From IMG/VR virus record IMGVR_UViG_2799112923_000002, positions 128,001 through 166,911 of that record: DNA of 38,911 bases, one strand, 5' to 3'. The position numbers were made by a program, and so were the translations under genes. Position 1 is the first letter of the stretch. Every line of letters begins with the position of its first letter. The notes beneath the pieces are model-generated. The model had not been told where the DNA came from, made no database searches, and worked only from the letters and a program-made list of their open reading frames with translations. This document shows positions 13,029 to 37,999 of this stretch, piece after piece. This DNA comes from a virus. Lineage: Duplodnaviria > Heunggongvirae > Uroviricota > Caudoviricetes.

Positions 13029-13527
13029 GCTTTACTCCTTTAAATTGCTCTATCAGCAAGTTCATAGTCCTTGTCATTTCATCCATCTTTTCACGCATAG
13101 ATGCCATTTCTTGTTGTTGAGCTTGTTTTTCTGCAACTTCTGGATTAAAATCGGATAGGAGTTTATCGTATTGCTCTATAAGAGACTTGTGATAACTAAC
13201 ACTATTTATTACGTCTATACTTTTTTGCTTTGAGCTCACTATTTCAGCGTTCATAGCATCTCTACTATCTGAAATTGTAATACTTTCCCCGTTACTATAC
13301 GAATCAGAAATATCTGCTTGTGCAGGTAAAGAATTATAATTTACATTAGTATCATTAACTTTAACAATTAAATCCACAATCATTTCTTGTGGTTGTCCAA
13401 AATTACTTGGGATTGGATATTTTGGTTTTGGAATAGGTTGATTTACAACATATCCGGTTTCCAATCTCGCATTATCGCCTTTATGAAGGATGTAAATTGG
13501 ACTATTTGGTCTTACTGATTGAAACAT
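13021..13527 (-). CDS. Hypothetical protein, beta domain + C-terminal coiled coil (168 aa)
   Basis: Intact ORF tightly packed in the operon. Confidence 0.75.
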   Translation of the reverse strand: MFQSVRPNSPIYILHKGDNARLETGYVVNQPIPKPKYPIPSNFGQPQEMIVDLIVKVNDTNVNYNSLPAQADISDSYSNGESITISDSRDAMNAEIVSSKQKSIDVINSVSYHKSLIEQYDKLLSDFNPEVAEKQAQQQEMASMREKMDEMTRTMNLLIEQFKGVKHE

Positions 13528-13530
13528 AAA

Positions 13531-13863
13531 TTAAACTAATAATTGTAATACACCGTTTTCTCTATCATAAAATACTAAATGAATTCCTTCTTCTAGTTCT
13601 GCTCCAGTAACAGCTACATTACCAAATGTAGTTACAGCAATTGTTGTTCCAGCTATACTTGGAACATTGAAACTAACTGGTAAAGAAGTGGTTGTAGGAG
13701 TTTGATCAATCTTGATCGCAATTAATCCAGAAAATCTTGGAGAAACTGCTGGAGAAGCATTAAAATTAAATACAACAGATGTTGTATTTTCAGTTATACT
13801 TCTACTTTCAAGACATGGAATTCCATTAATATTCACTCTATTATATACAAAACTCGTAGCCAT
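13531..13863 (-). CDS. Hypothetical all-beta protein (110 aa)
   Basis: Intact ORF with alternating hydrophobic pattern. Confidence 0.7.
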   Translation of the reverse strand: MATSFVYNRVNINGIPCLESRSITENTTSVVFNFNASPAVSPRFSGLIAIKIDQTPTTTSLPVSFNVPSIAGTTIAVTTFGNVAVTGAELEEGIHLVFYDRENGVLQLLV

Positions 13864-13886
13864 AGTATCAAGCCCCTCCTAAGCAA

Positions 13887-14744
13887 TTAAGCCCAGATTG
13901 AACCTGAACCATAGTAAGGATATCCATAATATCCATTTCCATAAAGAGTATAAGCAGGAACAGCGGTAAGTTGAGGATACTGTACAGAAACTGTTGAAGG
14001 TTGTGCAGCTTTAATTTCAGAAACTTCTTTCTGAATTGGAGCAAGCATCGCAGCAACAGCAGCTGTTTGTGCAGCATTGTCAATCTGTCCTTTGAGATTT
14101 GTATTCTGTGCTGTAAGAGAATCAATTTTATTTTGTAATTCACGCTCTTTAAGTGCACAGAACTGATCGTTCATTGCAATTGTTTGAGCATTAATTGCAT
14201 TGATTATATTACCAGCATTTCTATCTGCTTGTGAACCAAGTTGATTGGTTTGTTCGATAGTTTGAATTCTAGATTCATAACCCTGTTGTGTAGTTAAAAG
14301 ACGGTTCTCGCAGCAACATTCCTGAAGTTTAGCAACAATAGATGCATCTCCAGAAAGAATAGCATTCTGAACCTGTAAACCAGTCATTCCAGTTTGAGCA
14401 GCAACATTGGCGATAGCCATACGTGCATCATTAACTGCAGCAGACATTGTATTAAAATCAGAATTGAAAGTTGTGGCTAATTGACGAACATCTGCATCAG
14501 TACCATTGATTGCTTGAAGGATTACATCGGTATTATTATCATTGTTTAACATACCTGCAGCACCATTGCCACCAAAACCTCCAAAGCCACCCCAGCCACC
14601 GCTGAAGCCAGCACCAAGTAAAAATCCAATCAATGCACCACCTCATCCACCAAGGCCCCAACCATTATTTCCATTATTAAGGGCATAAGCTAAAGGAAGA
14701 GAATTACCTTCGTTGCCAAATACATAAGTTTTTTCTTCTGCCAT
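13887..14744 (-). CDS. Gly/aromatic hydrophobic segment + long coiled-coil protein with CCC motif (285 aa)
   Basis: MAEEKTYVFG...GWGLGGWGGALIGFLLGAGFSGGWGGFGG...LQECCCENR...YGYPYYG. One TGA extends ORF 13887..14633 to ATG 14744. Confidence 0.8.
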
Positions 14745-14798
14745 TTTATTTTAATGTTTAAATTTTTATTAATATCTATCATTTGTTGATCAACGATA

Positions 14799-14915
14799 CA
14801 AAGATAGTATATAAACAAGCAGAAGCCTAATGTTGCTAATAAATACTTTTTAATTAGTTAAATTATTGATTTTCAATCATTTATAAAATATAAAAATTAG
14901 TAAGACATTACTAAT
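14799..14915 (-). promoter_or_regulatory. -7 promoter element plus operator-like inverted repeat
   Basis: TATCTTTG at 14799-14806 (TAnnTTTG). ATTAGTAA-GACA-TTACTAAT at 14896-14915. Related half-site TTGCTAAT at 14833-14840. Confidence 0.55.
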
Positions 14916-15387: not shown

Positions 15388-15672
15388 TTATTCTCCATTA
15401 AGTATTATATCCAGAGCTTGGGTATCAGAGATTTCAGGATCTACATAAGGTTCAGGTTCTGGTCAATCTTCAGGTTTATCTATTTCATCAAAATCTTCTA
15501 GTACGTCTTGATGTGGCGGATCTTGTAGAATACCACCAATATAATAAGAATAGCCAAGTCAAAACTCTTCTCCCATTATTTCATCTGATACTATTCTGCG
15601 AATTACTTTTCCTTCATTCGCAATAAGAACGGTAACATCCGTTATTCCATTATTTCTTATTTCTGTTCTCAT
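15388..15672 (-). CDS. Small acidic fibre-accessory/chaperone-like protein, copy B (94 aa)
   Basis: MRTEIRNNGITDVTVLIANEGKV...LGYSYYIGG...KPEDWPEPEPYVDPEISDTQALDIILNGE. Paralog of 16915..17196. Confidence 0.75.
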
Positions 15673-15674
15673 AA

Positions 15675-16850
15675 TTAAGGTATTGCTTGAATTTTACTTG
15701 CATAATTCGACCACACGGATGCAGATTGATATGCAGAAACACTTGCCGCCGGAACATAGATATTCGTAAGATTACTAAATCCGGCATCTCCACCACCTGA
15801 TATGTCAGGAGGAGTTGTCGCAAGACACGTCATATCTTTCAATAAAGGGCAGTCAGCAAACGCTCATTGCTCTATTCTTGTTACTGTAGATGGAATTGTA
15901 ATTTCTGGTAATGAGGAGCATTCTAAAAAAGCCGCCGCTCCAATTTTGGTTATCCCCTCATGTAAATTAACTTCTGTCAAACCCGTAAATTGAGAAAAGG
16001 TGCCATATCTTGCTGCAGGACTTCCTGTTCTTAATTCAGTTATATGTCCAAGGCTTGTTATCTTATAAATATAAGGATAATTAAATCCCCCGGCCCAACA
16101 ATTGTCATCAAGAAATGTTAAATTAGGCATGTATAATTCATCAAAATGAAGATTAACACAGCCCCTAAATGTCCACTGACGCAAAGCGGTGACATTCTCC
16201 ATATTGATGGTGGTCAAGTTGGTACATCCTCAAAAAGCACACGCCAGATCTATTGGATTATTTGGTAAAACAACTTCTCTTAATTCAGTACAATCTTTGA
16301 ACGTTGCATCATTCCAGGGAGCCGTTCCTTTTAATTCCGTTATAGAACCAAGAGATGCGACCTTTTTGATTTTAGTATTTTCAAATGAACCCCAATCTAT
16401 ATGTGTAAGGTTCGGCATGTATAATTCTCCATACAATCCAGAATTGCTGAATGACCACGTTGAAACAGATGTTACATTTTCCAGATTGATATATTTAAGG
16501 TTCGTACAACCATTAAAAGAATTAGTACCAATATATGCTACCGTTTCTGGTATTAACGCAGCAACAAGTGTCTCATCATTTTGAAATTCCGTATCTCCAA
16601 CTCTTGTATAGTTTGCGCCTACAACTTTTCGACCCCTACTATAAGTTGTAGCTCCATCATTCTCCGTAACAACCCAAGTCTGGATAGCCTGGTTGACTGG
16701 TAGTGGTGTAGGAATAGAATCTATTGTAGATGCAAGATTGGACAGATTCTGATTTGCTGATGCTGGCATTGTCGCACCCTTGTTGTTGCAAGAAGTGTAC
16801 GCCGCCGCGACCTTATTCTGCGCATTTTGTATTGCTGTTGCTATACTCAT
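15675..16850 (-). CDS. BspA-type leucine-rich-repeat (LRR_5) protein, copy 2 (391 aa), putative receptor-binding tip
   Basis: Joins 16230..16850 and 15864..16217 through 2 TGA. Repeats such as IGTNSFNGCTNLKYINL and IGAAAFLECSSLPEITIPSTV. C-cap ATTPP...IYVPAASVSAYQSASVWSNYASKIQAI. Confidence 0.85.
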
Positions 16851-16851
16851 A

Positions 16852-16912
16852 TTATAATGCGTTTATTAAAATTTCAAATATCATACATACATTTCACTTT
16901 ACTTCTTTTCAT
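16852..16912 (-). pseudogene. Chimeric duplication scar (start of CBM gene fused to end of fibre gene)
   Basis: ATGAAAAGAAGT (start of gene 15386) followed by AAATGTATGTATGATATT...TTAATAAACGCATTATAA (a deleted copy of the fibre C-terminus at 18457-18510). Confidence 0.7.
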
Positions 16913-16914
16913 TT

Positions 16915-17196
16915 TTATTCTCCGTTAAGTATAAGTTTCAGTGCTTGTTTATCTGAAAGTTCTGGATCAATATATGGCTCTGGTTCAGGCCAATCTTCTG
17001 GTTTATCAACTTCTTCAAAATCATCCATCGTATCCAAATGTGGAGGATCTTGTCTTACACCATTAATATAATAAGAATATCCAAGATAAATTTCGTCGGA
17101 TAAATTGGTAGTTCCTTTTCTACAAAGAACCTTATCTTTATCTGCAACAAGGACAGATACATCTTTAATGCCATTGTTCCTAATTTCTATATACAT
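16915..17196 (-). CDS. Small acidic fibre-accessory/chaperone-like protein, copy A (93 aa)
   Basis: Intact ORF, paralog of 15388..15672. Confidence 0.75.
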   Translation of the reverse strand: MYIEIRNNGIKDVSVLVADKDKVLCRKGTTNLSDEIYLGYSYYINGVRQDPPHLDTMDDFEEVDKPEDWPEPEPYIDPELSDKQALKLILNGE

Positions 17197-17198
17197 AA

Positions 17199-18455
17199 TT
17201 ATACTGGTATTGTTCCGTCTGGATTTAATTCATACATCTGTGAAGCATAAGTCGTTCAATTTGTTGCATTTTGATATGCTGAAATAATTGAATGATCTGC
17301 CGAATATGGTACATAAAATTTAAATGTTGTATTTGTATCAAAAAACATTCGTTGGCCGGTTTCGGGAGGGACTGTTGCTCTTACTATTACTGTATCTAGA
17401 TTATAACAGTTTTGAAATGCAAATTCTCCTATATATTCGCAGTTAGGGCCAATGTCTACATATTCTAATTCGGAACAACCAAAAAATGGAGCGCCACCAT
17501 ATATAGAACCTTGTATTGTAACAATTGATGGAAGATTTACAGTAGTTAGATTAGTATGCGTTAATGAAAATGTTTCTATCGTTTCAACGCTACTCATATC
17601 AAAATTACCAAGACTATTACATTCTCTAAAAGCATTATTGCGAATAACTGTTACGTTTTCTGTTCCAGTTACTGTTTCAAGACTTGTACAATAAAAAAAA
17701 GAAAAGTTACCTAGTTCTGTACAAGTTAATGGAAGTAACACTGTTTTTAAAGACGAACAGCCACTAAATGTTCCTCCTTCTGTAGTTGATGCACAATATG
17801 TTGTAGTAATTGTAGATTCTGATAAGTCAACACTTATTAAATTTGTACAATTCGAAAACGTAAAATCTCCGCCAAAAGCCGAAATATTAAGTTTTGCACT
17901 TCTAACCCCAGAGTGACGAAATACAGCTCGTGTTATAATTGGAATGCTATCAGGTCAAACGAGATCTATTTTAAGATTTGTACAATTATAAAACGCTAAT
18001 TGATCTACTCTAATAGCGTTACTTAAATCGATATATTCAAGGGATGTACATCCTTCAAACGCTCATTCATGAATTTGTTCTACATTTTCTAGATTCGTGT
18101 ATTTTAAATTCGTACAACCTTGGAAGGCGTGAGAACTAATTACATTTACTGTATCTGGAAGAAGAGCTTTTACTAATGTAGTATCGTTTTCATATTTTCT
18201 ACTTGGGAGTACAGTCATTATACCAACATATTCTTCTCCACGTGTATAAGTTACTACACCATCCTCTTCATTTCTATTTACTGTTTGAATAGTCTGATTA
18301 AATGGAATATCAGTTACAATTGTATCAATAGTTGGAGCCAAATTAGTTAAGTTTTGACTTCCTGCAGCAGGCATTGTTGCATCCTTGTTATTACAAGAAG
18401 TATATGCTGCTGCAATTTTTGTTCTTGCATTTTGTATTGCAGTTGTTATACTCAT
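17199..18455 (-). CDS. BspA-type LRR protein, copy 1 (418 aa), putative receptor-binding tip
   Basis: MSITTAIQNA... open through 3 TGA, joining 18063..18467 and 17256..17741. AFxGCTxL repeats. C-cap ATVPP...FYVP...AYQNATNWTTYASQ. Confidence 0.85.
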
Positions 18456-18456
18456 A

Positions 18457-19833
18457 TTACAATGCATTTATTAAAGTTTCAATATCTCCTATAATATCAT
18501 ACATACATTTTGCGCTAGGATATTGTGTATCTGTTGAAGACGATGATATTGAGGTAACTTTATTTGCCAAAACCTCTCGATCATCTAGAGAATCTTGGAC
18601 AGAATCACCATTATCATCTTGTATTCAACCAAATCCAACGCTTCCATCACCACGTACATTACCAGTAGAACGTACCATTATACCACCAGTTACTTCAACT
18701 TCTTTAACAAATTTTTTGAATCCATCTATAGTTTCATTTCCAGTTGTATGTACTACTCCAGAATTATCCGCCTTTGCACTAATAGCTGTATAAACACATT
18801 TTGCAGATGGATACTGAGTATGTGTATTAGATGATGATAAAGATGTAACTTTATTTGATGTAAACTCCATTCCACTTGGAGCATCTATAAGATCAGAATA
18901 CGTACCAGTTTTTGCAATTTTATGTAAAATAACCGTTCCACCAAGAGATTCTGATGCACTTACAGGTAATGCAGCAGAACTTGTTGTATTTAGTATTCCA
19001 GAACTTACAATTGCTATATTTCCACTGCCAAGTAAAGATTTATTATTTATCGTTTTTATATTTACACCAGATACAAGTTTATCTTGTTTATTTATATCTT
19101 GTGGATGTACGTGATCAGCTTTAGCATAATTTGGAGATGATCCAATATTAGCTATACCATCCATAACAGGATTTGTTACAGCTGCAGATGGAATATCAGG
19201 TTTATCTTTTAGATCTGTATACGATCCTGTTATTGCTACATTAGCAAAAGTTGGTTTATCTTTTAAATCGGTATATGATCCTGTTTTCGCTACATCTGAG
19301 AGTTCCGACATAAGATTACCAATATCTGCAACACTATCGGTTACCGCTGCTGATTGACCATTATAAACAACTTCGGTTAGTGTACCCTTATTTTTAGTAA
19401 ATCCTCAACCAGCAATAGTAGATTCTGTTGGAACCACTGGTGTTCCAATTAAATCAGAATACATTCCTGTTTTAGCAATTCTATGTAATTTGATTGAATT
19501 AGATAATGGTTCTGAGGAACTAACCCGTTGAGTAGTAGAATTGTTTGTATCTAATGTACCAGGTGCGTTCGGAATATCAACTGTAATTCTTGCCATACCA
19601 TCTACAATAGGTACTTCTTCATTGTTAAAAACTACTCCAGATAAAGTTCCGGCATTGCTTCAATATGTATTTTTACCATCGCTGGTTAATACTTGACCTT
19701 TTTCACCTTGCGTAAATATAGAAGAATCTGGTTCGGTACGAGTTTTTATAGTATCTATTCGTAATGTATCTGCAAAAATAGTATCGGTTACTCTTAAATT
19801 ACCACATACTAAAGAATTTTTTAATTGTGCCAT
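18457..19833 (-). CDS. Tail fibre-like protein (458 aa)
   Basis: MAQLKNSLVCGNLRV... open through 3 TGA. VAKTGSYTDLKDKP repeats, YAKADHVHP, KQDKLVSGVNIKTIN and VVHTTGNETIDG fibre motifs. Ends DIETLINAL. Confidence 0.8.
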
Positions 19834-32150: not shown

Positions 32151-32440
32151 CCTAATTCTAATTCACCATTCTCGTTACATTGAAGTACAGGGAGTTCTCT
32201 AGTTGTTTTTCAGTACTTAACTTCTTCTAAACGTCTTTTTCTCATTTCACGTTTAACAAACTTTTTGAACTTTTCCTCATCTCCTTGTATACTCATGACT
32301 ATCGGCGGAACAAGTTCTCTATTTAAATAAAGATAGAGTGTTCACACATCATCTTCATGTCCAACATGGAATTTGGTAATATAATCTCGATCCGTTGTGT
32401 CATCAATTATTTGTTTAATCTCTTCTTCTAATTCCGTCAT
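32144..32440 (-). CDS. Hypothetical protein between TerL and portal (98 aa)
   Basis: MTELEEEIKQII... with 2 TGA. Overlaps both neighbours. Confidence 0.65.
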
Positions 32441-34677
32441 TGTATTTCGTATTTACTTTTATTTGGAATAGCACCATGATGTAAAACACCGTTTTCATCT
32501 CGATACCATCCAAAATCGACTCATTGCGCAGATAAATCAACGGTCTTTGTTGGTTTTAAACCGTATAATTCTTCATCGCCAATCTCACAACATTCCATAG
32601 CTGCAATAATATCAAACTTTCGTTTGTTTGCATAAGAGTATTTAAGAAGTTCGTTGAGCATGTCTTTAAAATCTATTGTGTATCAATAGTCTTCTAAGAA
32701 TGCTGCAACTAATTCCAAGCCGTGTTTGATTACGGCTTCAGTTGCAGGAATACCTATTAACTTTTTAACAGCTCCCATTTTTTTAACTTTGGTTGACATA
32801 GCAAACTCTGGACGAGCCATTAATAAATCATCAGCTTTTCTTTCTTGTAAATATCTTTGAAAAGAGAATTTTGTGTATTCAAGCATTGCTTGACAATTAT
32901 ATCATACAAGAAGTTTATGTGCAGTTTCATAAGCAGCTCTAATTTGTCTAGGTCGTGCTTTATACATTGCAACATATTTTGGTTCATCCATTCCTCGTAT
33001 TCGTTTTTTAATAACAATACAGAAATCTGACACATCTGCATCTGTTGCAGAATCTTCAGAGCCTTGATCAATAGCATCTATACCAGCAACATAAAGATTT
33101 TTATAAGATGCTCCATCTGAAGTTGTCATTGGTGGTTCGACTATTAAAACGTCTCCATGAGGACTTTCAAAAGCATTTACTTTAGAATACATTTTATCAG
33201 AAGTTTTATCCCAAGTAAGAAGATACCGTTTAGGTTCTGTATAACCTTGATTAGACATTATTTGTGCCATTCTAGCTGCAACTAATTCAGCATCAAACAT
33301 GTTTTCTCCAGTTTTTGAAAGTGCTTCTTCTGGATTAAAACAATGTTCTGCACATTCGTCTAAATAATCTTGACCATGAAGTGTTTTACGATATTCTTCA
33401 TAATGTTTCTTAAATTCAGGATAATTTGTAACACCTCTTTTATCTAGATACTGACTAACTAAAGCAAACTTATGACACGGTAAAAAGAAGCACGTTAACT
33501 CTGGTTTACCATCAATAGTATCATAATTCTTATAAGGAAGTATTTTTCCTCCTTTTGGGTTTTTGAACATTGTGGCAAGGCCTTCTAAAGCCATATCATC
33601 ACCTCCAGTACCTAAGAATATTTTTGTACCGAAGTGTTTACCACCAAGTTCTACAAGAGCGTCTCCTTGAATTCAAGATTTGGATAAAACTGGATTAGAA
33701 CCAGCTTCTTCGTATACTAAACGGTCTGTACGATCACCTCTAATTTTTCCTGGCTTATCTGCAATAATAGAGTGAATTTCTGACATTCATCCAAATTCTA
33801 CACCGTCTTTTGTTTTCTTTGAAGCACGTTTTGTAGTAGCGTTATCTACAACTTGTCTTACATGTCGAAAACCATAGGCATTTACATTTAATCAGTTCAA
33901 TTGATACCAGCATTTAGCTCTTAAGGATCCAAGCTTTTCATCATCAAATGCTGTCAGAACAACGCGATATCCAGGATTAGAAGTATAAGGCCTTACAGAC
34001 ATTGCCGCTGTCATTTCAGACCAACCAACACCTCTAGCTTTTAAAGCACCTACATTTAATGCAAGCTTTTCTGCCATTTCAACATAATGGAATCATTCAT
34101 ATTGTTTGGATAAGAAACTTGGAAAATCATATTCACGACCTGTACCGGCTACTGCATCTTCGAGAACCGTTTGCATCCGATAATAGTTTAGAAAGTAATA
34201 ATGGTCGCCAGTAATTCTATATTTTCCAATTGTTAATCCGTTAACAATCCTATCCATTTCTCTATTTCAAAACTTTTTATTAGGAATAGTTCCATTTGGA
34301 AATTCTGTATATTTTCCTTTTGCTCGAAATGTTCTTGCTACTTCTGTAAAAAGTTCTGGATCAAAGTCTAAGCCTTGATCCATTGTAATAGGTCTATATC
34401 CTGTAATTTCATAAGACAATTCTGGATCAAAATACTTGATTTTTTCATCAATAGGTACATCTCATTCTGCATTTTTTCGTCTATGGTGAACTCATATCTG
34501 ATCTATAGGTTCGTCCGGAATAGAATCGTCCATTGATTCCAATTTCTTTTTCTTGTCTTCAAATAATTGTCTTATTAAACTTTCTTCATAATTCTCCGTA
34601 AATTTCGGCATTCTTTTACGCTTCTCTAACGGAGTTTCTAATTTTTTCTTATCACTCTTAGCCATATTATTCCTCAT
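32428..34677 (-). CDS. terL: Terminase large subunit (~749 aa)
   Basis: One frame with about 11 TGA. ITGDHYYFLNY, Walker A-like LKARGVGWSE, Walker B LVYEEAG, motif III GTGG, nuclease YVAGIDAID and C-terminal FDIIAAM. Confidence 0.95.
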
Positions 34678-34686
34678 TGTTTAGGA

Positions 34687-35259
34687 TTAATCAAATAATC
34701 CTAATTCAACATCTCCACGCAGTTTAGATTGTGCTGCAAGATCTGTTTTATGTTGCAATTCTAACTCTTGTAACTGAGTTCTCATTTTACTTATTTCTCC
34801 AATAGATGCAAGAACATCTTTTGCTTTATGAATTGGTTTACCTTCAATGTCAACTTCACTGAAATCAATATTATCCAAATAAACCTGAAATTTATAAAGT
34901 GTTCTATATGCAACTTTAATTGAAGTTAAGATGGGATCAGAATCCTGAAGTTCTTCATATTTCTGATAAGCTGCAGCAAAATCTGGGTCTTGAAGATCTT
35001 TCTCTGTAAGTCCTGAATCTGCCATAGCTTCTTCTTGCCTATCTTTTATTGGAGATTTAAAATAAGGGGATTTAAAATCGAGAACCAGGTAGATATATGT
35101 AAATTCTTTATAAGCTCTAAGTCTTTTCTCTCCGGTTTTGTCTTCTTTACATTTATTTCTATCTGGTTCTCAGAGTTTTGCAAATTCTTTAACTAATAAT
35201 ATGGTATAATCATCTATTTGAAGAGTGTTTGTCGCATTATCAAATATAAAGATTTGCAT
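34687..35259 (-). CDS. Conserved protein upstream of TerL, putative terminase small subunit (190 aa)
   Basis: MQIFIFDN...EFAKLWEPDR...AYKEFTYIYLVLDFKSPY. Extends ORF 34687..35025. Confidence 0.55.
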
Positions 35260-35267
35260 ATATTATC

Positions 35268-37328
35268 TTATTTAGTTTTATTCTTATAATAATTTCACCA
35301 TTTTTTAGCTCTCTCAAATCCATCAATATCATCTACATAATACGGTTTAGCATTAGTATCTCCACCAGGATAGCTATACGTTCTAGTTACGCTAAACTGT
35401 TCTGAATTTGGTCTTTTAGCCATTACAGTAAATGTTGAATCTTGTTTCGGTGTATCATTATGTCTAATATTTAAAGATATTGTACCTTTTGGAGAAGTTA
35501 TTAATTGGTTAACATTATCCTCAGTTTCAAACTTTATTGGATCGTTGTTTTTTTTAAAAAAGCCAGTTTGTTCTAAAGTTTTTCATTCTGGTTCTACTAC
35601 TACTTCTGGCAGTTCATATAAAGATTCCCCCTTCTGTGCTTTTTTAACTTTTCCTCCACATTTTAAAGTTTTAGATATATCCTTTCCAAGTTGTCCGCTT
35701 TGTTTACTTACTGGAACAGGTGTTTGAATGTTACGATATCCATTTATAATCGCTTCTGGTAACTCTGTACCTAAATATCCAAGAGTATAAGATGACTGTG
35801 GTTTTTTGTTACCTGTAACGGTAATTTCTGGTAACATGTTTCCTAAATAACCTAAAGTATGTGTTTCTGGTTTAGGACGATTACCTATTACTTGTACTTC
35901 TGGAAGTTCTGTTCCTAAGTAACCTAAAGTGTACGATTGTTGTGGTTTATGCCCAGTAATTTCAACTTCTGGTAACATATTTCCCAAATAACCAAGCGTA
36001 TAAGACTCTGGTTTAGAACGATTTCCAACAACCTCAACTTCAGGAAGCTGTGTACCCAAATAACCAAGAATATAGCTTTCAGGTTTAGCACGATGTCCAA
36101 CAACTTCTACCTCTGGAAGTTCAACTAAATTATTAGATCTTTGTCCAATAACAGTAACTCCTGGAAGTTCTACAGTATTAGATTTTTCAGCTAAATTAGT
36201 ACCATACGATTTACCTCTTCAATTAAAAGTTTTAGCACCTGATTTCCTACTTTGTGCGAAAGCTTGTGCAAAACTTAAATTGTCTAAAGGTTGTTCTTGA
36301 GTAGAAGCTATTGGTTGTGAAATTGGTTCTTGAACAGATACTTGAGTGGGAGTTTGTGATCTTAAATCACCTTCTTTAATAGGAGTAATATTTCCAAATG
36401 TAGATGCTGTTGGAACGTTTATACTTCTTTCTGCTGGAGTAATACCAGCTGCCATTTCTCTAGCTCTTTGTCTAGCTTCTTGTCCACGAAGGCCCATAGC
36501 TCTTGCAGCATTCATTGCATTAGCCATAGCAAATGAAAACTGTTCATTATTTTCAGACATTCCGTTTACTCTCGCTAGTTCTCTAGCTTGACGACGTGTA
36601 AGCCTAGTATCTACATCGTGTCCTGGAAGCGGAGTTAACTCTATATTACCACCTGATTGTTTAGCAGGAACATTAAATATACTTTGTCTAGCTTCTTCAT
36701 ATTCTGCAGCTTTTTCAGGAGTTATTCTTCTAGCAGCACCAAAATATTGAAAAGGTCTTGCAAAGATTCCAATTTCGTTTTCTAATTTTGGAGCTACAGA
36801 ATATTTAGGTGCAATTAAAGTTGTTCCATCAAATACTTGATAAGTTGGAGCATCTCCATTAGTAGGATGTACAGATCTAATTATTCCATTTTTAAATGGA
36901 TACCAATCAGTAGTATCTTTTTGTGTAATTATTCTACTAGCACGGTCTGATAATGTTTTACCACCATCATCTAATTTAATTCCTCCACATCCACAGTCAA
37001 CTCCACCACCTTTACCAAATTTTGTTACAAGTTGTTGTAGTTTTCCACCACATTTAAACATAGAGGGTTTAAAGATTTTTAATAATTCTTCTACAGCAGT
37101 AGATTTTGATTCTTCACTAGAAGAAGGATTGTTTATCGTGTTTGCATAATTAGATATTTGAGAAATCGTCTCTGGATTATCTTTTAAACTGTTAAGAACA
37201 TTAACAGCTTGTTCCATATCAATGCCTATTGCTTGAAGTGTATCTAAAAGATTTTCAGCGTTTTGTTCTCCTTCTATACGTTCTGCCTTTGTTAAACCCC
37301 CATTAGCAAATAATTGCATGTAATTCAT
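35268..37328 (-). CDS. Repeat-containing putative internal virion/cargo protein (686 aa)
   Basis: ORFs 36219..37328 and 35583..36059 in frame through TGA (SFAQAFAQSRKSGAKTFNWRGKSY). Multiple xxGG motifs. Tandem LPEV repeats. Confidence 0.7.
35735..36175 (-). repeat. Tandem ~23-24-aa coding repeats LPEVxVxG-x6/7-YTLGYLG
   Basis: Five full units plus partial flanking units, read directly from the translation. About 69-72-nt period. Confidence 0.9.
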
Positions 37329-37576: not shown

Positions 37577-37999
37577 TTAATCATTTTGTGTTCCTTTTGG
37601 AACGATTCGACATAATATATTTTGTTCATCAACTTCTCATAAGTTTTGCTTTCTAAATGGAACTGGTTTTAGAATATGTTTTACAACAAATACATCTTCT
37701 CCGACCTTCACATTTTTACAAAAAGGACCAACTGCGATCACTTTTGCACAAGCAATATATTCATCGTTTTCTTCAATTTCTCCACTTTCATTGGATTGAT
37801 ATTGTTGAGAACTCTGAACACCTATAATGAGACCTGATTCAGTTCTTTCAATTTTACGATAGGGATTTTCATCATAAGGTTGAACAACAACTCCTACATT
37901 GCAAGGAATTATATCAAAATCCCCAGTTTTAATTCCATCTAATTGTTTTTCAATAATTGTATCAGACATTAACTTATCTAAATAATCCATATTACCCAT
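37577..37999 (-). CDS. groES: GroES/Cpn10-like co-chaperonin (140 aa)
   Basis: IIPCNVGVVV, RTESGLII mobile-loop motif, AKVIAVGP...VKVGEDV. TGA read-through completes VDEQNILCRI. Confidence 0.75.

Follow-up and report, generated by a model that had tools for sequence, protein, structure and literature searches.

Tandem LPEVxVxG motifs that resemble Bacteroidales TonB boxes, paired with YTLGYLG, in a hypervariable protein of a TGA-recoded crAss-like phage

TonB boxes of transporters and colicins engage the C-terminal domain of TonB by pairing with its strand beta-3. Group B colicins (B, D, Ia, and M) and S-type pyocins (S2 and S5) carry a single N-terminal TonB box together with receptor-binding and killing domains, and we know of no phage-encoded TonB box. 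Among phages, the T4 internal proteins IPI-IPIII are hypervariable and have a conserved N-terminal targeting peptide. In the SusC protein Bt1763 the TonB box is VDEVVV (PMC7782687), and TonB-dependent transporters have been proposed as phage receptors by computational docking alone (PMC10028833). In Crassvirales, gp45 and gp46 of crAss001 are the cargo proteins (PMC10172136). The Zeta crAss-like group has been described as well (PMC7886860, PMC12386605), with published host predictions that are mostly Bacteroidales (PMC12386605), and the literature yielded no report of a cultured phage of the Zeta-type lineage.

Here we analyzed 38,911 nucleotides (the window; positions 128,001 to 166,911 of IMG/VR record IMGVR_UViG_2799112923_000002) of the TGA-recoded, 166,911-bp genome of a gut phage related to crAssphage; the genome has terminal repeats. 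Its 25 tRNAs include the anticodons TCA and CTA, and long open reading frames (ORFs) sum to 52,983 aa under code 4 vs 29,435 aa under code 11. The first TGA of the gene studied here, P0001 (W370), aligns to a TGG tryptophan codon in the L009 homolog. We place the phage in the Zeta crAss-like type (proposed Echekviridae) with TGA read as tryptophan, a placement by traits alone (TerL and portal type, size, tRNAs, and code-4 late genes) rather than by a tree. Shine-Dalgarno motifs precede only 3 of 95 ORFs, and this scarcity, the crAss-type TerL and portal, and the literature (PMC7886860, PMC12386605) make a Bacteroidota-like host likely. The Bacteroidota promoter motif occurred five times in the window against 2.15 expected, which was not significant (at least five in 7 of 100 shuffles), and binning of related TerL contigs into metagenome-assembled genomes, which paired them with Faecalibacillus, Lactobacillus, Roseburia, Saccharibacteria, a methanogen, and others, was uninformative about the host. 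The features discussed below are as follows.

37577-37999, minus strand: GroES-like gene, upstream of P0001 at the position of crAss001 gp15 (phrog_3188, E 3e-5; synteny)
35268-37328, minus strand: P0001 gene, 686 aa (translation 35271-37328), open only with TGA as tryptophan
36939-37328, minus strand: N-terminal part of P0001 (aa 1-130), with MNYxQxFAxGG, a helical bundle, and then FKCGGKLQQLVTKFGKGGxVDCGCGG
36429-36611, minus strand: helical module TRRQAR...LRGxExRxRAREMAAG (aa 240-300)
36186-36296, minus strand: "W-module" LSFAQAFAQSRKSGAKTFNWRGKSYGTNL (aa 345-381), a helix and hairpin that contains the first TGA
36219-36221, 35583-35585, and 35295-35297, minus strand: the three in-frame TGA codons of P0001 (W370, W582, and W678)
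35727-36173, minus strand: repeat array (aa 386-534), two leading LPxVxVxG copies and five 23/24-aa units
35640-35663, minus strand: KCGGKVKK, a copy of [KRQ]xGG[KQ][IV], between the array and the eighth LPEV copy
35589-35612, minus strand: isolated eighth copy LPEVVVEP (aa 573-580), followed by the second TGA (W582)
35271-35531, minus strand: small beta-rich C-terminal domain ending in a helix (aa 600-686), containing the third TGA (W678)
34687-35259, minus strand: 190-aa gene (p190) directly downstream of P0001, homologous to gp16 of crAss001 (24% identical along its full length, E 2e-8)
32428-34677, minus strand: large terminase (TerL), 749 aa with 11 TGA codons (phrog_6681, E 3e-62)

Under table 11 the P0001 ORF stops at its first in-frame TGA (codon 370, 36219-36221), which precedes all the motifs at aa 388-580; the sequence-only reading was thus right to place the whole array after that codon. 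The MNYxQxFAxGG N terminus is the best-conserved part of the family, F91, G94, G95, K96, C112, G113, and C114 of the N-terminal part are near-invariant columns, and AlphaFold2 gave pLDDT values of 65-76 for aa 10-80; a fold search with aa 1-95 returned generic helical-bundle matches only. The helical module (pLDDT 86-94) is matched by most of the 201 representative hits discussed below, and the pattern F.W.GK.Y.T of the W-module (pLDDT about 90) occurs in 67 of 178 retrieved proteins. In the C-terminal domain, AlphaFold2 placed strands at 606-651 and a helix at 668-684 with pLDDT of only 41-53; tails resembling this domain are found in P0014, P0023, and P0035. Sequence searches recovered 39 homologs and, with the whole protein as a phmmer query against 1.8 billion representatives, the 201 representative matches, mostly through modules other than the array. 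No family for the whole protein or its pieces was found in Pfam, PHROGs, or NCBIfam, PDB sequence profiles gave no match, tblastn against 50,697 phage records returned nothing, and a P0001 profile matched neither the whole crAss001 record (E up to 1) nor MT835470.

The P0001 gene is hypervariable and occupies a variable slot between gp15-like and gp16-like genes, ahead of the terminase and portal genes. In related contigs, p190, TerL, and the portal are 70-96% identical, whereas the P0001 homologs share only an N terminus at 45-56% identity and have unrelated C-terminal parts; p190 alone is 92-96% identical in contigs whose P0001 homolog reaches only 45-56%. TerL itself is 28-29% identical to Crassvirales TerL and 46% to that of MT835470. 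We propose that P0001 is a mosaic accessory late protein that is mostly disordered. Like crAss001 gp45 and gp46, it would be late-expressed, partly disordered, and possibly packaged, although it shares no sequence homology with those proteins and its gene lies between the gp15-like (GroES-like) and gp16-like genes upstream of TerL, whereas the cargo genes are flanked by those for the muzzle and the virion RNA polymerase. As a hypervariable accessory protein whose gene has conserved neighbors and whose short N terminus is conserved, P0001 also recalls T4 IPI-IPIII, but it is much larger and not homologous to them.

Translation of P0001 gives exactly the eight LP(E/G)xxVxx motifs listed in the sequence-only reading, all at 35589-36167 on the minus strand, and the span it assigned to them (35590-36175) holds: LPGVTVIG starts at aa 388, LPEVEVVG at 404 and 428, LPEVEITG at 452, LPEVQVIG at 475, LPEITVTG at 499, LPEAIING at 523, and LPEVVVEP at 573, with leucine codons that start at window positions 36167, 36119, 36047, 35975, 35906, 35834, 35762, and 35612, respectively. 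The segment is not the low-complexity region it was taken for, however, but a diverged tandem repeat of 23-24 aa. Each unit consists of s-Y-T-L-G-Y-L-G, two free residues, L-P-E-V-x-V-x-G, and a basic linker, and the final unit ends in LPEAIINGYRNIQT. That YTLGYLG stretches separate the motifs proved correct, in that xYLG follows the motif in five units (aa 422, 446, 469, 493, and 517), but a mere linker it is not, being as constrained as LPEVxVxG. When the 167-kb genome is translated in all six frames, the pattern LP[EDQ][VIA].[VI].[GAP] is found eight times where 0.3 would be expected, and seven of these matches lie in the P0001 gene. A two-motif DNA pattern has two matches in the window against none in 100 shuffles, and these counts exclude a chance origin of the motifs. 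At the DNA level Tandem Repeats Finder reported 1.9 copies only.

These repeats are genuine and old. Comparison of the units with one another gave a pS of about 0.63-0.66, with synonymous sites near saturation, and pN/pS of 0.108/0.63 for LPEV.V.G, 0.091/0.65 for xTLGYLG, and 0.47/0.63 for the linker. LPEVxVxG and YTLGYLG are thus under equally strong purifying selection, and within LPEVxVxG, V4 and V6 are retained while positions 5 and 7 vary freely. An array survey, as the earlier reading had suggested, brought one further carrier, P0007, in a region search of 5.8 billion proteins, so that the array is limited to two protein clusters; a pattern scan of IMG/VR for a pair of motifs spaced by 72 nt turned up no further contig. 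The unit layout of P0007 matches that of P0001 (xYLG spacing of 24, 23, 24, and 24), and the two proteins are 58% identical in the array vs 39% across the wider alignment. At the array position of another homolog, P0002, lies a related 30-aa repeat with an aromatic Y.Y.DF followed by xxLPxTxVIGNK, and shorter forms of this aromatic/LP repeat occur in P0016, P0020, and P0022, indicating that an aromatic motif and an LP-strand motif have been paired more than once. The arrays of these four proteins end in ELPxVTVTPE-type variants.

Structure prediction gave no confident repetitive beta fold, and the array matched no fibre, solenoid, or cell-wall-binding repeat family. AlphaFold2 returned a pLDDT of about 30 over aa 382-628 of full-length P0001, and three units modeled alone with a repeat alignment reached 39, in a weak model that puts strands at YTLGY and EVQV. 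The array is thereby weakly predicted, from a shallow alignment, to be disordered or flexible, and this low confidence rests on only two real array sequences and is no proof of disorder. An outer-membrane beta barrel built from hairpins was considered and rejected, as the strands span just 6-7 residues and AlphaFold2 showed no barrel.

The reading that we tentatively prefer, and which we hold to fall somewhat short of probable, is that the array is a partner-dependent, two-motif beta-strand docking module within a mosaic accessory late protein. Each 23/24-residue unit would present two constrained strand-like motifs, the aromatic YTLGYLG and the amphipathic LPEVxVxG, joined to the next unit by a basic, proline-containing, freely varying linker, and would fold upon binding by adding beta strands to its partner. 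The two leading copies and five full units would then make up a multivalent extended binding module rather than TonB boxes on inert linkers. The array is old, restricted to one lineage, and carried in the C-terminal half of P0001. What was observed argues for such docking: the repeats and their age, the constraint on the two motifs, a layout that is conserved, the absence of an autonomous fold in the predictions, and a hypervariable gene. A fixed unit number in two diverged proteins, on the other hand, would be equally expected of a folded or oligomeric repeat domain. Strand addition as the mode of docking, a packaged or envelope-acting role, and the partner itself are what we infer beyond these observations. 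For the envelope role this is so because P0001 has neither a signal peptide nor a membrane segment (maximum Kyte-Doolittle 19-mer 0.84) and a profile search revealed no relative of it in the set of proteins that crAss001 virions are known to contain (PMC10172136). Among homologs in the variable slot, just 4 of 40 contain a weakly hydrophobic 19-mer.

A self-assembling beta-rich domain, in which hairpins of YTLGYLG, a turn, and LPEVxVxG stack as a solenoid or a homo-oligomeric fibre, would act as a fixed-length rigid spacer between the N-terminal modules and the C-terminal domain. We regard it as unlikely, yet several features fit it: two strand-like motifs per unit, each with glycines at its close, a unit number and a 24, 23, 24, 24 spacing that are conserved between P0001 and P0007, and the strands that the weak model puts at YTLGY and EVQV. 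Oligomeric fibre repeats typically score low monomer pLDDT, and the low values obtained here would be in keeping with such repeats. On the other hand, AlphaFold2 found no fold (pLDDT 30-39), the families of fibre, solenoid, and cell-wall-binding repeats gave no match, and homologs carry unrelated sequence at this place, which would be unusual for a load-bearing structural part.

The third possibility concerns the identity of the partner. In the idea from which this analysis started, P0001 is packaged and ejected into the periplasm as a multivalent TonB-box mimic, LPEVxVxG pairs with the C-terminal domain of TonB, and TonB-ExbBD then either draws the phage's cargo or DNA inward or has its TonB tied up or jammed. 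As judged from the sequence, the resemblance of the phage motif to the Bacteroidales TonB box appears specific: LPEVEVVGHR and LPEVTVNGYR are identical at 6 of 10 positions to LDEVVVVGYG of a gut Bacteroidales SusC-type transporter, the terminal copies retain G-Y, and 413,000 residues of comparator-contig frames contain just two instances of L.EV.V.G, both of them in TonB-box settings. This transporter, L155, which was fetched from gut metagenome sequence and carries STN, CarbopepD_reg, and Plug domains, reads ILDEVVVVGYGTQRK at its box. Like the box of SusC/RagA-type transporters, the phage motif has the L-x-E-V-x-V-x-G(-Y) core and would be a short stretch able to form a strand within a flexible region; a transporter has one box along with a signal peptide, Plug, and barrel, whereas P0001, made in the cytoplasm, has seven or eight copies without these, each paired with a conserved YTLGYLG. 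Relative to the transporter box, the phage motif has proline for D/E, and where the transporter has valine at positions 5 and 7 it has polar or unconstrained residues.

Further points on the side of a TonB mimic are the likely Bacteroidota-like host and the predicted disorder of the array, as in the translocation domains of colicins. Like colicins and pyocins, P0001 would be a foreign protein with a would-be TonB-box copy in a disordered region, to reach TonB past the outer membrane; unlike them, it has no single N-terminal box and no receptor-binding or killing domain. The same absence of a signal peptide or membrane segment means that access to the periplasm would require ejection from the virion, and the earlier label of a putative ejected virion protein gained no direct support, as P0001 has no crAss001 homolog and its gene lies outside the cargo block. 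Other points against TonB are the proline in place of the acidic residue before E, the equally conserved YTLGYLG that has no counterpart in TonB boxes, the sufficiency of one box in all known cases, the restriction of the array to two protein clusters, and the poor conservation of a single copy in the phage's tail-lysozyme-like protein (1 of 58 homologs). We consider the mimicry doubtful, and TonB is the only candidate partner that draws support from the sequence but has a low probability of being the right one. A gut Bacteroidales TonB of 227 aa, L040 (PF03544 at 79 bits), was retrieved from metagenome contigs through the motif MPKWKPG. A 1.3-Mb bin labeled Phocaeicola (G001) was set aside as a source of TonB, as it lacks TonB_C and its genus-mates, at 0.9-1.2 Mb with an rpoB of about 1200 aa, show that the label is wrong.

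Very improbable is the view that LPE|V and the xxGG motifs mark a core or internal protein cut to small peptides in head maturation. On its side, LPE|V agrees with the L/I-x-E rule by which T4-type prohead proteases cleave, seven of the eight copies have an unvarying L-P-E, packaging and head genes adjoin the P0001 gene, and, like T4 internal proteins, P0001 is hypervariable with a conserved N terminus (MNYxQxFAxGG). Against it, selection keeps V4, V6, G8, and all of YTLGYLG, none of which cleavage would require, a PHROGs search of the window ORFs gave no prohead protease (with poor sensitivity, even the capsid protein being missed), and we know of no report of head-protein processing in Crassvirales.

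If the TonB reading were true, docking of a phage protein to TonB would supply entry with a direct and testable energy source and would extend the colicin strategy to phages, for which we know of no described precedent. Even without TonB, P0001 belongs to an unannotated, fast-evolving accessory family that numbers about 200 representative clusters and occupies a fixed hot spot by the Zeta crAss-like terminase, and the conserved array of paired motifs makes a clean candidate for a module that interacts with the host.

Motifs of P0001 also recur in other proteins of the genome. The tail-lysozyme-like protein (PF18013; genome positions 13384-14889) carries ELPEVTVTPE, and we considered LPEV as a common tag of envelope-acting proteins, which was rejected in view of the 1-in-58 retention of that copy noted above. 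The xxGG motif [KRQ]xGG[KQ][IV], by comparison, is kept in 35 of the 58 homologs of the same protein. It occurs nine times in five proteins of the genome vs 1.0 expected, and it is common to P0001 and a candidate gp45-position protein (1486 aa, genome positions 118649-123109).

The LPEVxVxG and YTLGYLG repeats at aa 386-534 of P0001 (the array) are real, old, under selection, and very rare. All eight motifs listed by the sequence-only reading were found in P0001 at the positions it gave, and a TGA at 36219-36221 precedes every one of them, as it had claimed. A six-frame translation of the whole genome held 8 motif copies against 0.3 expected, with seven of the eight in the P0001 gene, which is laid out as follows:

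window 35268-37328, minus strand: P0001, 686 aa; codons 370, 582, and 678 are TGA
aa 388 and 404: two leading LPxVxVxG copies
array units: five of 23-24 aa, [sYTLGYLG]-xx-[LPEVxVxG]-[basic, Pro-containing linker]
array end: last copy, continuing into GYRNIQTPVP
after the last array copy: KCGGKVKK motif
isolated eighth copy: LPEVVVEP

Tandem Repeats Finder recovered just 1.9 copies, and the units were strongly diverged at the DNA level. By Nei-Gojobori counts, pS between units was ~0.63-0.66 everywhere, and pN was 0.108 in the LPEV.V.G core, 0.091 in xTLGYLG, and 0.47 in the linker. High pS throughout with low pN in both motifs shows an old duplication and purifying selection on LPEV.V.G and on YTLGYLG, which had been taken for a mere linker but has a pN as low as that of the motif core.

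Searches of Pfam, PHROGs, NCBIfam, and PDB returned no match for P0001. Its family is unnamed (39 matches by word-indexed search, 201 representatives by phmmer) and has these modules:

module 1: conserved N terminus MNYxQxFAxGG
module 2: Cys/Gly knuckle
module 3: TRRQAR helical module
module 4: W-module, SFxxAFxxARxxGxKTFxWxGKxYTT
module 5: variable middle, wholly different even between close relatives
module 6: tail KQGGQIEK...KCGGKTKKK, often present

Two large phage-like proteins, otherwise unrelated, each carry the W-module twice: P0127 (1329 aa) and P0130 (882 aa; TLPDLVVTGNRGR follows one copy). The module behaves as a mobile small domain. The 24-aa array was found in only one other cluster, P0007, which is 58% identical to P0001 in the array and 39% over a wider alignment. 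Unit spacing is the same in both (24, 23, 24, 24), which, with the higher array identity, argues that the array is orthologous and stable and not a product of recent slippage. P0002 has a 30-aa variant (Y.Y.DF-xx-LPxTxVIGNKSGY) at the same place, clusters P0016, P0020, and P0022 have shorter versions, and several distant family members carry single LP/EP-x-V-V-V-type strands after the W-module; a pattern scan of IMG/VR yielded no further contig with the array.

Gene order was the same in every related contig (exonuclease, GroES-like, P0001-type gene, 190-aa gene, TerL, portal). TerL and portal were 70-94% identical between these contigs, and P0001 homologs were 45-56% identical at the N terminus and unrelated beyond, so that P0001 is a hypervariable mosaic gene within a conserved frame. 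The downstream neighbor is:

window 34687-35259, minus strand: 190-aa gene between P0001 and TerL, homolog of gp16 of the reference phage crAss001 (24% identity, E 2e-8)

This gp16 homolog is far better conserved (92-96%) than P0001. A profile search of the whole crAss001 record found nothing P0001-like, which, given the gp16-like neighbor, makes the P0001 gene a lineage-specific insertion between gp15-like and gp16-like genes.

The best-supported reading, which we hold tentatively, is that the array is a partner-dependent docking array of two strand motifs in a mosaic accessory late protein. AlphaFold2, run on full P0001 with 31 homologs, modeled aa 245-300 as confident helices and aa 345-380 as a helix plus hairpin; pLDDT was ~30 across aa 382-628 and only 39 for three array units with a repeat alignment. 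These models are weak evidence that the array has no autonomous fold, its alignment holding two real sequences. We consider it unlikely that the array would act as a self-assembling beta-rich spacer.

The sequence-only reading had proposed a multivalent mimic of the TonB box, the transporter motif that docks onto TonB. In the SusC protein Bt1763 the box is VDEVVV, and its deletion abolishes function (PMC7782687). Our comparators, from gut-metagenome contigs, were a housekeeping Bacteroidales TonB (227 aa, PF03544 at 79 bits) and a SusC-type transporter (STN, CarbopepD_reg, and Plug domains; box ILDEVVVVGYGTQRK). LPEVEVVGHR of P0001 and LPEVTVNGYR, the last copy in P0007, each share 6 of 10 positions with the box LDEVVVVGYG. 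The open frames of the comparator contigs (413,000 residues) held L.EV.V.G twice, both in TonB-box-type settings; P0001 alone holds it several times, so the likeness is not trivial. However, the phage motif has proline in place of the acidic residue before Glu, its positions 5 and 7 are free instead of Val, and the equally conserved YTLGYLG has no TonB-box counterpart. Moreover, one box is enough for all known TonB-dependent proteins, and P0001, with no predicted signal peptide or membrane segment, would reach the periplasm only through putative packaging and ejection. A TonB-box mimic has real sequence support but appears rather improbable, and it is very doubtful that the repeats would be protease sites.

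The case for P0001 as a virion protein is circumstantial. Its TGA-containing gene heads the late block; no product of the gp15-gp17 region is among the reported crAss001 virion proteins (PMC10172136; PMC6235969). A second motif, [KRQ]xGG[KQ][IV] (longer form [FY]-[KRQ]-x-G-G-[KQ]-[IV]-x-K-x-Q-x-G), occurred in 9 copies against 1.0 expected, in P0001 and four other phage proteins:

window 35640-35663, 36651-36668, and 37035-37055: motif copies in P0001
genome 13384-14889 (tail-lysozyme-like), 15415-17130, 17108-18811, and 118649-123109 (1486 aa): the four other carriers

One carrier is a two-domain tail-lysozyme-like protein (PF18013); of its 58 homologs, 35 keep the motif, placed at domain boundaries. 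Another, of 1486 aa, occupies the place that cargo protein gp45 has in crAss001. The motif may serve a set of late proteins as a common signal for targeting, docking, or processing. LPEV was rejected as a general tag, since the lone copy in the lysozyme-like protein is kept in 1/58 homologs.

The virus record (166,911 bp, direct terminal repeats; the window is its last 38.9 kb) has 32% G+C and 25 tRNA genes, including two suppressors:

genome G000:C1 59870-59962: suppressor tRNA, anticodon TCA (TGA), 93 nt; ARAGORN calls it 'SeC', so a long variable arm is possible
genome G000:C1 41394-41466: suppressor tRNA, anticodon CTA (TAG)

Every long ORF of the window lies on the minus strand and is open only with TGA as a sense codon, and summed long-ORF length over the whole genome nearly doubles, from 29,435 aa (code 11) to 52,983 aa (code 4). 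Codon 370 of P0001 falls within a conserved F-x-W-x-G-K motif, where the homolog in phage-related contig L009 has TGG, which supports TGA = Trp. Despite suppressors for both codons, ORF content rises only with TGA recoding, a situation also described for phage Lera (PMC12386605). Terminase (phrog_6681) and portal (phrog_6547) belong to the Crassvirales type; TerL identity was 28-29% to cr1_1-type phages and 46% to MT835470. By size, tRNA load, two suppressors, and TGA = Trp in late genes, traits and not a tree, the phage fits the Zeta crAss-like group (PMC7886860; PMC12386605), whose predicted hosts are mostly Bacteroidales (PMC12386605).

Related phage contigs were scattered across many unrelated bins, and host assignment from these bins was rejected for their mutually unrelated taxon labels. 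One bin labeled Phocaeicola dorei, holding a 143-kb related contig (CAVGUB010000111.1), is only 1.3 Mb and lacks TonB_C; the other genomes of its GTDB genus measure 0.9-1.2 Mb and have an rpoB of ~1200 aa, and the label is evidently wrong. A Shine-Dalgarno motif was found in 3/95 ORFs, and such scarcity is usual for Bacteroidota and for the phages that infect them.

Four metagenome contigs fetched through a TonB-type motif, some labeled human gut, encode TonB_C and a TonB-box-like (D/E)-V-VVVGYG in one protein (L155:8648-10540, minus; L076:4869-6761, plus; L047:135-1343, plus; L119:2263-4080, minus), putting a docking domain and the motif it targets on the same chain. Three of the four also have CarbopepD_reg and a Plug fragment; a BlaR1/M56 start is present in two of those three and in L119, which lacks both domains. 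In related phages, TerL is interrupted (L011:2691-6065 and L031:3393-6764): one such TerL is a 1124-aa ORF with a ~370-aa insert, and another lies split on either side of an ORF that matches LAGLIDADG (PF14528) faintly. Both resemble insertions of inteins or homing endonucleases.
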